Shown one piece after another: positions 30,001 to 33,000 of a stretch of DNA of 42,289 bases (position 1 is its first letter; each line of letters opens with the position of its first letter). The stretch lies in the IMG/VR virus record IMGVR_UViG_641736224_000031. The stretch is one strand, 5' to 3'. Source of the DNA: a virus. Its lineage: Duplodnaviria > Heunggongvirae > Uroviricota > Caudoviricetes. A program made the position numbers.

Positions 30001-33000
30001 TGTCTGTTCTCCCGGTACGATGTCACTCTCACGGTATACGGAGCGGATTTTTTCCGCTGGTAATCCCAGCGAACGACGCGCTACTGCCTCAGGTAGTGCA
30101 TCCACCACCTGATTGCAGGCCGCCCACCAGGATAATTCAGCCAGCGATAATTCACGCTCCTGTGTGCCATTCATTGCGTGACGAATGACGTCAATCATCC
30201 ATGCTGACAGGTTTTGGTGAGCAAGTTGCTCAAGTGATTCGGAGGTCTGGTCACGCAACTGGTTGTCGCAGTGCCAGCACAACACCATTGCGCCGGTACC
30301 ATAACGGTGAATGACGGTTTCACTGTGGTGATAATCGCCGTGTGGCCACTGGCAGGATTTAACATGGCGCAGTAACCAGTCAGACAGTGCGCCAGCGCCA
30401 CCCGCAGCACGAATCACTCGTTCGTCGCTGAAAAATGGCAGTAATGATTTATCCTCCGCCAGCGGCTGGCGAACGGCAGGAACGACCCCGGACGGCAGAT
30501 TACGCATGCTTTTCGGTTCCGGCTCCACCAGTACCCGGGTATTGTGGAATACCGGCATGGATTCACGGCCCGGCTTAACGATCACCAGCCCGAGTTCCGG
30601 TACCAGAACAGGTCGAAGTAATACCCGCACGTTACCTCCAGATGCGTTGCTGGAATGTGCGGGACGGACGCGGTGGGCGTTCGGAGTAAGGAAGCCTGAC
30701 GGAGATTATCCAGTGACGATAATCGAGACTGAGGGCTTTCTTAACCTCGTATCCGCGCCTGCGGTAACACTGAATCAGCCATTCAGCCTGTTCTTCGGTG
30801 CAGGGGTCGTGCTGATACCAGTCAGATTTGAATGCATGAGAACGCCGCCCGTGCCTGCTGGCAGGGGCGGCAGAGTTATCCGAATTGTAAAATTTGGTAT
30901 CGTGCGCCATCTGTTTTCTCTGCTGGCGCAGCAGGTGCCAGTTGTTCAGGCTGACGGATGGATTGTAAACCAGAACGACCAGAAAAAACAAAACCCGCCG
31001 AAGCGGGTTAAGTGCGGGTGCGTTGAGGATGCCTGACACATCAGCGGTGGCGAGGGATTTCTCCCCCGCCTGGTCTCTTACTCCTCAGGTTCGTAAGCTG
31101 TGAAGACAGCGACCTCCGTCTGGCCGGTTCGGATTCGTACCTCGCAGAGGTCTTTCCTCGTTACCAGTGCCGTCACTATGACGGTTAAACAGATGACGAT
31201 CAGGGCGATTAACATCGCCTTTTGCTGCTTCATAACCTGCTTCTCCTTGCCTTTCGGCGCGTAAGAGGCTAACCTACGTTTGTGAAGCATAGATTGGGCC
31301 TCAGATTAATGTTAAGCGTCTTGCAGGACGCGTAATGTTAACTGGGGCTTTTCTCTGTCTGCCTTACGGTGGCATGCCCGAGGCAGACAGCCTCAAGCAC
31401 CCGCAGCAATTCTACTTAACTCTCGCTTTACAGCAAACCGTTTTGCCCGATATGGGAATTCCCATACGGAATGAATTCAGTTCCCCAGGCGCTCCATCAA
31501 AAACACAACCAGGCAGTAAACACCCACAACAGCAATAACAGCCAGAGCGCCTTCCATTACCAGTGAAATATCATCCGACATATTCCCTCCCTTGGTGTGA
31601 ATCCCGGCGAACGTTTTTACCCCCACCGACAAATAACATATACTAGAAAAGCAATAGCTATAGCAACGCCTGCAAATGCATCTGGCCGGCTCATTGGTTC
31701 TCCCCCTGTGTCGCTTCTACTGCGATCTGACTGGCGTATTCGTTAATGGTAACGATAAGTTCTTGCTCGGCCTCATCCAGACAACTACCGATACCTCGCC
31801 TGTCCACTTCAGAAGCATCGAAATCTGCACGAAGCCTGGCGACCTTCAGGATTGCGGACAACACCTCATCAGGGATTGCCGGAGAGTTGGTTGACGTTTC
31901 CGAGATTATCCGAAAATTATTGGTTGACGAACCCTTATTTTCCCGAAAGTTTCCAGCCTGAAGCATGGCGGCGCGGTGACACCAGATAATCCAGCCAAGC
32001 GCCATATCCCATGCCATGTATTCTCTATCGCCATTTTTTGCTCTGCGGCGATCTACAGATTCCCCGAAACGCTTCTCCATAAATAATTCATAGGCTGCCC
32101 GTTCATCCGATACTGATGCCAGTGATGCCAGTGCAATTTTTAATGCGGTAAGCATGTTGTTTTGATCTTCATCGAGTCCGAACGGTATTTCATCCCGTGA
32201 TGACTCAATTCCGGTAATCGTGTTCTGTAGCCATTCTTTGGTTAATTCAGTCATTTTTCACTACCGCCCTTTCGGGCGGTCTCCTGATGTTCTGAGGGTG
32301 CAGGAATCCCTCCGGTTAAGGATTTAATAAAAATCATTTCTGATTTAAATTTTCAGTGTTTAGTTGTTGGTTTATAGCCTTTATGCTTCGGCCTTATTTC
32401 TCAGCCATACACAAACAGGACCATCTTCGGTGTCATGTATCGAACCGATAAACCATCCCTCACCTTCTGGTCGCTCAGGTTCCCATGCTGAAATATCAGG
32501 GCCATCTGCGTCCAGATTAAAATCATCTTCATCCATACTACGGATAGCCCACTGAAGATTATTTTTCTCCATCCAGGCGTTAAACTCTTCCGTTGAAATA
32601 TATTCCCGACCATCACAGAATTTTTCATATTCAGGATGCGTCCAGCAGCCATATTCATTACGTTCCACTGGCATTTCTTTAATTACGCTCATTTACCCCC
32701 CTTATTTAATTTTCTACGACACTTTTTACAATCATCTGGACTTTCGAATGTATCCGGCTCACGCTCATTGCCAAAATACATCCACCCACCGCAAATACTT
32801 GTTATTTCACCTTCAGCAAAATAATGATGTTTTTTCGCCATAAGTGGCCTTGCCCAGCCCGGATTCGTTTTACTCACTTGTTGCCTCCTTTGCGAAGCTC
32901 TGCGACTAACTCGTCACATATGTGCGTCAAAGAGCAAAGTTTGATTGCTGGATGTTCGCGCACCATCTCCACACCCTGCGCCCGCAATTCTGCCAGAAAA

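Follow-up and report, generated by a model that had tools for sequence, protein, structure and literature searches.

A hok/mok/sok-like module and two candidate membrane micro-peptides in the nin region of Escherichia coli O157:H7 prophage Sp14

The viral record IMGVR_UViG_641736224_000031 (Duplodnaviria; Heunggongvirae; Uroviricota; Caudoviricetes), a stretch of 42,289 nucleotides referred to here in its full length as the window, is a lambdoid prophage of Escherichia coli O157:H7, and its genes lie on the minus strand. The annotation of strain Sakai names the location 'prophage Sp14, lambda-like phage'. A preliminary description of this DNA, made from the sequence alone, had picked out three minus-strand open reading frames (ORFs), at 31078..31233, 31477..31581 and 31691..32254, and had presented them as an accessory island outside the standard lambdoid backbone. 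All three ORFs are present at these positions, and in Sakai they correspond to ECs_2754 (mok/hok), ECs_2755 (34 residues) and ECs_2756 (187 residues), written below without the underscore. The 1.6-kb region that holds them is found at 100% identity in at least 343 complete genomes. A fourth ORF, a 25-codon frame that we call smORF1 and that the preliminary description had missed, lies between ECs2756 and ECs2755. The features of the upstream part of the locus are as follows, in the direction of transcription.

32255..32380, minus strand: intercistronic leader of 126 nucleotides, AT-rich, its GC content of 0.36-0.41 being the minimum of the neighbourhood
32256..32328, minus strand: portable element, the gene-proximal 73 nucleotides of the leader, consisting of GGAG, a hairpin CCGCCC-GAAA-GGGCGG and 7-9 nucleotides followed by ATG
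32263..32280, minus strand: GC hairpin ACCGCCC-GAAA-GGGCGGT, a perfect 7-bp stem 9 nucleotides ahead of the ECs2756 start codon
31691..32254, minus strand: ECs2756 (WP_000137954.1), 187 residues, an all-helical mosaic of three shuffling modules
31617..31694, minus strand: smORF1, MSRPDAFAGVAIAIAFLVYVICRWG, 25 residues, a predicted single-pass membrane micro-peptide
31477..31581, minus strand: ECs2755 (NP_310782.1 / WP_001278460.1), MSDDISLVMEGALAVIAVVGVYCLVVFLMERLGN, 34 residues, a predicted single-pass membrane peptide with an acidic N-terminal tail
31451..31466, without strand: palindrome TATGGGAATTCCCATA, perfect over 16 bp, between the ECs2755 stop codon and the -35 hexamer of hok

The gene order annotated in RefSeq runs from a cI-like gene through cro, a YdaT-like gene, an O-like gene, P, a DUF1627 gene and four small hypothetical genes to ECs2756, ECs2755 and hokD, and continues with a 92-residue ORF, DUF968, RusA, Q and tRNA genes. 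On the basis of this order the block lies between the replication genes and Q, where it had been placed before. Its supposed position outside the lambdoid backbone does not stand, since the order of a DUF551-type gene, peptide, hok, small ORF, DUF968, rusA and Q is repeated in unrelated E. coli prophages. An order common to many E. coli lambdoid prophages marks a common nin-region block and not a private island. It is therefore likely that the segment is a recurrent early-right (nin-type) block of the lambdoid prophages of E. coli, holding two units that are independent of each other: the tail of an early operon, comprising ECs2756 and the two peptides, and a type I toxin-antitoxin module of the hok family.

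ECs2756 had been taken for an orphan, a view that the searches overturn. At E<=1e-3, a word-index search returned 4,326 homologues, for the most part under the name 'DUF551 domain-containing protein', and an exhaustive search of 1.84 billion representatives gave 1,049 matches at the same threshold. The latter cover separate stretches of the protein (approximately residues 1-100, 35-100 and 117-181), occur at varied positions and belong to proteins of 69-463 residues. Five PHROG families match: 14306 over residues 93-181, 660 over residues 48-98, 3323 and 5117 over residues 1-47, and 60 over the whole length. ECs2756 thus consists of modules, at about residues 1-47, 35-100 and 117-181, that in relatives precede DUF551, Ead/Ea22, MazZ-like or Lar domains. 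Among 146 homologue representatives, DUF551 was found in 33, Ead_Ea22 in 6, and a MazZ-like dATP/dGTP pyrophosphohydrolase domain and a Lar domain in one each. ECs2756 itself has no match in Pfam, and hence neither DUF551 (PF04448) nor Ead_Ea22 (PF13935), and none in NCBIfam or PADLOC. With DUF551 proteins it has just the N-terminal modules in common. A 118-residue ORF two genes upstream gives a weak Ead_Ea22 match (E=0.004).

Modelling with AlphaFold2 on diverse representatives gave a mean predicted local distance difference test score (pLDDT) of 77.7 and five helices, of which two form a C-terminal hairpin, with a disordered linker at residues 102-128; a model built on close homologues only reached a pLDDT of 50.7 and was left out of the fold search. 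A Foldseek search of the better model against the PDB and BFVD gave nothing at E<=0.001, its sub-threshold matches being generic helical hairpins and uncharacterised phage proteins, and a homologue-profile search of PDB sequences gave no match. The most economical reading is that ECs2756 would be made of helical scaffolding or oligomerisation modules. A mosaic design of this kind has been described for the Ea22 proteins of lambda and Stx phages (PMC10834534). Like the Ea22/DUF551 mosaic proteins, among them the Ea22 variants of Stx phages and YfdS of CPS-53, ECs2756 has a short N-terminal segment and long helices, but it lacks their exchangeable C-terminal globular domain and lies in the nin region instead of the exo-xis region. 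These proteins offer no function that could be carried over to it.

The absence of a domain found in most relatives raises the question of whether ECs2756 is what is left of a DUF551 gene in decay, with no function of its own. In the alignment, the modules of the relatives are followed by the DUF551 domain (PVTPDGWISCSERMP…HWMPLPEPPQEV), which is absent from ECs2756, and in a DNA alignment the final codons of ECs2756 (…CAGGGGGAGAACCAATGA) match up with DUF551 genes at their 3' end (…CAGGAGGTGCGCCAATGA), so that ECs2756 looks like a DUF551-less recombinant. The prophage also holds an insertion sequence (IS) element, as indicated by an ALIL pseudoknot (the frameshift signal of the IS3 family) at 24119..24235 on the plus strand. 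However, the same C-terminus follows another N-terminal module in P0151 and also exists in a diverged allele whose last residues are ...IQGAHQ, and is therefore not a one-off lesion. The ORF is moreover intact on more than 1,000 contigs, and its stop-start coupling to smORF1 (ATGA) is kept. Decay of ECs2756 is an explanation to be taken seriously, although we think it improbable.

The leader upstream of ECs2756 had been described as 126 nucleotides of AT-rich DNA with a GC hairpin, and as the gene's own. The composition and the hairpin are as described, but the leader is not particular to this gene, since the gene-proximal 73 nucleotides stand at about 94% identity directly upstream of unrelated nin-region genes, in 2,708 of 5,426 complete E. 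coli genomes. One example is a DUF7167 gene (L127, 1501..1573), where the hairpin is conserved, and the element is also found in a few deposited lambdoid phages. The leader as a whole folds at -25.1 kcal/mol (z=-2.6), with the GC hairpin as the dominant stem. Two roles for this hairpin were rejected. As an intrinsic terminator it lacks a U-tract, and none was called by the scan; as a bridge joining a split Shine-Dalgarno sequence it remains speculation, the fold pairing the upstream GGAG elsewhere. The 73-nucleotide element may represent a junction of the mosaic or have a part in controlling translation; no description of it was found.

These findings also bear on the earlier suggestion that ECs2756 is moron-like, with a leader of its own, which is left unsupported. 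The coding (minus) strand of 32255..32380 has no sigma-70-like or terminator-like site and there is no terminator-like site between ECs2756 and hok, a result that is weak because it comes from a consensus scan only. As a portable intercistronic element or mosaic junction, the leader does not speak for ECs2756 as a moron.

The stop codon of ECs2756 overlaps the ATG of smORF1 in the sequence ATGA, with GGGGGAG upstream. In relatives, a 27-residue ORF, MNWPEAFAITGVAMAIAFLVYVICRWG, overlaps in the same way the stop codon of full-length DUF551 genes. The family was surveyed in 120 viral-contig stretches selected by the ECs2755 start pattern and 80 more selected by a DUF551 profile, which yielded 144 occurrences and 18 distinct peptide variants; every start lies in an ATGA or TAATGA overlap. 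The variants share M-x-W-P-[DE]-A-F, a hydrophobic core and, for the most part, C-R-W-G. In the most diverged copy (L067), at 65.5% nucleotide identity, a 27-codon ORF is kept, with 7 synonymous codon changes and 11 that are mostly conservative. The peptide has nevertheless gone almost unrecorded. A collection of 15 billion proteins does not contain its Sp14 version, smORF1 is in none of the five RefSeq records examined, and the 27-residue versions are annotated in only a handful of submitter records.

Behind some DUF551-type genes smORF1 is followed by a different gene in place of ECs2755. Elsewhere (L182, 1725..1847; L136, 1716..1997; L173), other DUF551 genes are followed by other membrane ORFs that overlap the stop codon, of 40 residues (MNKRNALLYAMVIGFGLAAGILVYIAW…) and 93 residues (MDSFAKYTIIDWIAFLQVLLIWF…). 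This suggests that genes of the DUF551 type are generally paired with a small membrane protein coupled to them. A frameshift present in one genome joins smORF1 and ECs2755 into one 74-residue ORF (P0329, MNWPEAFAITGVAMAIAFFSICYLSV…MSDDISL…).

ECs2755 had been called unannotated, which it is not: it has been ECs_2755 / NP_310782.1 in Sakai since 2001, and is WP_001278460.1 in RefSeq. As a membrane peptide, however, it does appear to be a genuine conserved coding sequence. Its start codon is preceded at 4 nucleotides by AAGGAGGG. Among 14 DNA alleles the variable sites fall 6/7/18 over the three codon positions, the replacements being V/A, I/V, M/I, F/L and G/A, and a switch of stop codon from TGA to TAA leaves the length unaltered. 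ORF and Shine-Dalgarno sequence are both kept in L067. A search with a 51-residue extended query placed the family in 24 clusters, all from E. coli.

Chance ORFs of 25-35 codons are frequent, and most copies of the cassette are more than 85% identical. The two micro-ORFs might thus be non-coding, either fortuitous frames in recently shared DNA or parts of a conserved RNA or DNA element, and for ECs2755 a frame on the antisense strand shows a similar synonymous count. Against this, smORF1 has kept its length, its WP[DE]AF and CRWG motifs and its ATGA overlap over 18 variants, down to 65% nucleotide identity, while ECs2755 has changed its stop codon at constant length and exchanged hydrophobic residues for one another. 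In L067, AAGGAGGG is invariant whereas the rest of the 35-nucleotide spacer before ECs2755 is only 66-69% identical. A non-coding origin therefore seems quite improbable to us.

Both peptides have one strongly hydrophobic segment (Kyte-Doolittle 2.5-3.1; maximum 2.7 for smORF1 and 3.0 for ECs2755), with acidic or neutral N-terminal tails and neutral or basic C-terminal tails. From this distribution of charge they are predicted to be inner-membrane proteins with the N-terminus out and the C-terminus in, the opposite of Hok. No Pfam, PHROG or NCBIfam family matches either peptide above chance level, and there is no Rfam match over either. They resemble the small membrane proteins and type I toxins of E. 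coli (Ldr, Ibs, TisB and ShoB) in being 25-34 residues long with a single hydrophobic helix, but they share no sequence similarity with them, their N-terminal tails are acidic or neutral and not basic, no antisense RNA is evident, and smORF1 is translationally coupled to the gene upstream.

Being small, hydrophobic and close to a known type I toxin, one or both of the peptides could be further toxins of this type, each held in check by an antisense RNA of its own. On the plus strand lies a sigma-70-like site (31616..31644, TTTACC-17-TATACT) from which an RNA antisense to the start of smORF1 would be transcribed. It matches at 9 of 12 positions where 2.2 sites of this quality are expected by chance in the region scanned, no terminator-like site follows, and in L067, as read from the sequence, it is poorly kept; it is probably a chance match, and an antisense partner for smORF1 was rejected on these grounds. 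The peptides also have an exposed strong Shine-Dalgarno sequence or stop-start coupling and lack a long structured leader, and nothing in Rfam covers them. Additional type I toxins are accordingly very unlikely here, and we prefer to regard smORF1 and ECs2755 as members of an early operon.

Their distribution bears on this assignment. Of 5,426 complete E. coli genomes, 674 (about 12%) carry the peptide cassette, including every Sp14 copy in O157:H7, and the median number of copies per genome is 2. The cassette was found neither in the INPHARED phage genomes nor in the 185,579 GTDB species-representative genomes. An intact hok follows the peptides at a distance of about 245 nucleotides in 101 of 109 copies. 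Three loci, however, hold the peptides and the palindrome without hok, and the Stx2 phage 933W holds hok without the peptides. Since the peptides persist without hok and hok in 933W does without them, they belong with the upstream early gene and not with the toxin. In L067, the 5' part of the hok leader is present, and no hok coding sequence was detected downstream of it; a 372-residue ORF follows instead (6489..7607, minus strand), resembling a C5-cytosine methyltransferase in motifs judged by eye.

The palindrome that separates the peptides from hok extends to 22 bp (CGATATGGGAATTCCCATATCG) in most relatives. Chance alone would be expected to give zero such matches in the window. Relatives keep the palindrome, also where hok is missing, and the hokW locus of 933W does not have it. 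As RNA it would form a 9-bp hairpin, and it could be a protein-binding site or the hairpin of an RNA 3' end.

The second unit begins immediately beyond the palindrome. Its features are listed below in the direction of hok transcription, followed by those of the opposite strand.

31409..31436, minus strand: putative hok promoter, TTGCTG, 16 nucleotides, TAGAAT, with a transcript start at about 31402
30988..31402, minus strand: full-length hok mRNA with putative ends, comprising leader, mok, hok and 3' untranslated region (UTR)
31078..31290, minus strand: mok reading frame, 70 residues, an in-frame N-terminal extension of hok
31078..31233, minus strand: hok toxin gene, 51 residues, matching the Pfam model HOK_GEF (PF01848) over its full length at E=3e-23
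31014..31028, minus strand: fbi element CCUCAACGCACCCGC, pairing with the hok mRNA 5' end (about 31391..31404) in the minimum-free-energy fold
30992..31009, minus strand: intrinsic terminator ending the hok mRNA, conserved in K-12 Qin; no second terminator-like site was found in 30600..32800
31247..31275, plus strand: putative Sok promoter, TTGCCT, 17 nucleotides, TAACCT, read from the sequence
31282..31352, plus strand: candidate Sok antisense RNA, its coordinates transferred from the annotated 71-nucleotide sokW of 933W

That the toxin belongs to the Hok family and has no relBE beside it, both proposed earlier, agrees with the HOK_GEF match and with the genome annotation. It also matches PHROG 251 ('MokW-like host killing') at 2.8e-33, is named hokD by PGAP, and its coding sequence is 100% identical to that of K-12 hokD. 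The mok frame is annotated in Sakai as the 'regulatory protein MokC' (ECs_2754) and aligns with the annotated mokW of 933W; from this arrangement, translation of hok is predicted to depend on that of mok. Over 31228..31402 of the minus strand, the Rfam family RF01794 matches with 114.9 bits against a gathering threshold of 59 (model positions 1-157). Although it is named 'sok antitoxin', the family runs sense to the hok mRNA leader, from GGGUGCUUGA at the mRNA 5' end to the hok AUG. Because it models the leader and not the antisense RNA, the match marks the locus and not the strand of Sok.

The hok promoter was placed by its position relative to the start of RF01794 and by its conservation in 933W and other relatives, and lies below the threshold of the scan tool. 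The whole transcript (31409..30988) folds with z=-8 and with long-range pairing of its 5' and 3' ends, the latter through the fbi element, a hallmark of hok mRNAs. With the fbi element and the terminator, the hok locus reaches about 30988, some 90 nucleotides past the left edge of the region first described. An isrK-like Rfam match over the hok 3' UTR and terminator (30988..31069, minus strand), at 27 bits against a gathering threshold of 50, is likely to be driven by the terminator.

A Sok-like antisense RNA had been expected on the plus strand at around 31230-31330, and a candidate was located there (31282..31352) by homology to sokW and by folding, which gives a 14-nucleotide single-stranded 5' tail, a long hairpin and UUUU (z=-5.2). 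It covers the Shine-Dalgarno sequence and start codon of mok (31288..31303). Both hexamers of the putative Sok promoter are conserved in 933W, and the site was not picked up by the promoter scan. With a Hok/Gef toxin, a mok frame, a structured leader, Sok, and pairing of tac with fbi, the locus is on its sequence features a complete hok/mok/sok type I toxin-antitoxin module, of a kind already well known.

The closest studied relative is hokW-mokW-sokW of the Stx2 phage 933W and Sakai Sp5, with which the Sp14 cassette (31040..31444) shares about 92% identity by megablast and 94% column identity in a pairwise alignment. The promoter hexamers, mok frame, Sok RNA and fbi element are common to both. 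The two differ in the C-terminus of Hok (…FTAYEPEE in Sp14, …FVDYESEK in 933W) and in the sequence beyond the fbi element, where Sp14 has a clear intrinsic terminator. They also differ in location: the Sp14 cassette lies in the nin region upstream of DUF968-rusA-Q and is preceded by the two peptides and the palindrome, whereas that of 933W lies near the right attachment end and is preceded by neither. In Sp5, hokW-sokW has been shown experimentally to be a toxin-antitoxin system of type I, the antitoxin of which needs RNase III and Hfq, and to promote lysis and double phage release after mitomycin C (PMC8621323). By analogy with this paralogue, toxicity of Hok and its neutralisation by Sok are predicted for Sp14.

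A second relative is hokD (relF) of the K-12 prophage Qin, which encodes an identical 51-residue toxin followed by a near-identical 3' UTR, including the fbi element and the terminator. The synteny continues beyond it, as hokD-rem-ydfU(DUF968)-ydfT(Q) in Qin (L129, 1756..3775) and as hok, a small ORF, DUF968 and Q in Sp14. Upstream, by contrast, homology ends 15 nucleotides before the hok ATG, and relBE takes the place of the leader, the mok start and sok. The synteny supports a common origin of the two blocks, the hok leader and all that lay upstream having been displaced by relBE. Sp14 would thus carry an intact, ancestor-like form of the truncated K-12 locus. Plasmid R1 hok/sok (parB) has the same architecture, with tac/fbi pairing, mok-hok coupling and a 65-70-nucleotide Sok with a single-stranded 5' tail; Sp14 differs from it in a diverged toxin sequence and in having a prophage and not a plasmid as its host. 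Elsewhere in the window are an STnc100 small RNA and, downstream of Q, three tRNA genes (27120..27292 and 28066..28312, minus strand).

The juxtaposition of toxin-like peptides and an uncharacterised gene had been read as the usual context for abortive infection or exclusion, with the proviso that no defence family could be named. The proviso holds: a scan of eight proteins against PADLOC-DB 2.0 at E<=1 gave a sole match, of the 34-residue peptide to Cmr5, at a chance-level E=0.027. It is conceivable that the whole block is an anti-phage island, in which Hok and both membrane peptides would respond to infection by killing or sealing the cell, with ECs2756 as the sensor. A membrane toxin does stand together with two further membrane peptides in a region that varies between prophages, and exclusion of T4 by hok/sok of R1 has been reported (Pecota and Wood 1996, as cited in PMC13047441). 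That exclusion, however, was not reproduced in 2026 (PMC13047441), and hokW-sokW, the nearest relative to have been studied, serves lysis and the release of phage (PMC8621323). ECs2756 is a member of the Ea22/DUF551 family of early genes, and its coupling to the early operon, together with the want of a promoter-like site, argues against defence genes expressed in the lysogen. A defensive role for the block is therefore very unlikely, and the abortive-infection context is unsupported. No mention of ECs2754, ECs2755, ECs2756 or the peptide strings was found in a literature search.

Instead, we propose that the block would operate as two units. The first would be a short operon tail, read together with the early genes and comprising ECs2756, smORF1 and ECs2755. 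ECs2756 would be a helical, modular Ea22/DUF551 mosaic protein that has lost its DUF551 end-domain. Because the smORF1 start overlaps the ECs2756 stop codon, ribosomes finishing ECs2756 would most likely re-initiate on smORF1, while ECs2755 would be translated from its own strong ribosome-binding site. As a best guess, both peptides would be expressed during infection or induction and would have the host envelope as their target. The second unit would be the complete hok/mok/sok module, with promoters of its own. Its stable mRNA would be held closed by pairing of the 5' and 3' ends, and the short-lived Sok would pair with the mok translation start, blocking the coupled translation of hok. When Sok synthesis stops, through loss of the prophage or through DNA damage and induction, processed hok mRNA would be translated, and Hok would insert in the inner membrane, killing or permeabilising the cell. 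The outcome would be stabilisation of the prophage or, as for the sister locus hokW-sokW, assistance in lysis and phage release.

Several points weigh against this two-unit scheme. Transcription of the first unit from the early promoter, re-initiation on smORF1 and the membrane topology of the peptides are all inferred. Sp14 may be defective, in which case its early genes are possibly never expressed, and ECs2756 could be an inactive deletion remnant. For ECs2755, the antisense frame that shares its wobble positions gives a similar count of synonymous and non-synonymous changes, and the signal of selection is modest because diversity is low and limited to E. coli. Finally, the fixed spacing of the peptides and hok in 101 of the 109 copies means that a functional link between the two units may exist.

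The segment is for the most part ordinary, and what remains beyond the ordinary is two conserved micro-membrane-protein genes, a portable leader and a conserved palindrome. The hok/sok part brings nothing new other than an intact, ancestor-like form of a locus that is truncated in K-12. The portable 73 nucleotides of the leader, present in half of the complete E. coli genomes, are a candidate for a mosaic junction or for an element of translation control in lambdoid nin regions. The new element is a conserved family of micro-ORFs of 23-28 residues, essentially missing from annotation and always stop-start coupled to a highly mosaic early gene; in Sp14 it is followed by a second conserved membrane peptide, ECs2755. 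Small phage membrane proteins are under-studied, and are able to control lysis timing, exclusion or host transporters. It is a tentative and rather doubtful proposal that smORF1 and ECs2755 represent a previously unrecognised class of phage small membrane effectors, made by re-initiation after early genes of the DUF551/Ea22 type. If it is true, the peptides would, for example, modulate a host envelope protein, the timing of lysis or the insertion of Hok, and the recurrent succession of a DUF551-type gene and a small membrane protein in stop-start coupling would be the mark of an early function of lambdoid phages that has two components.

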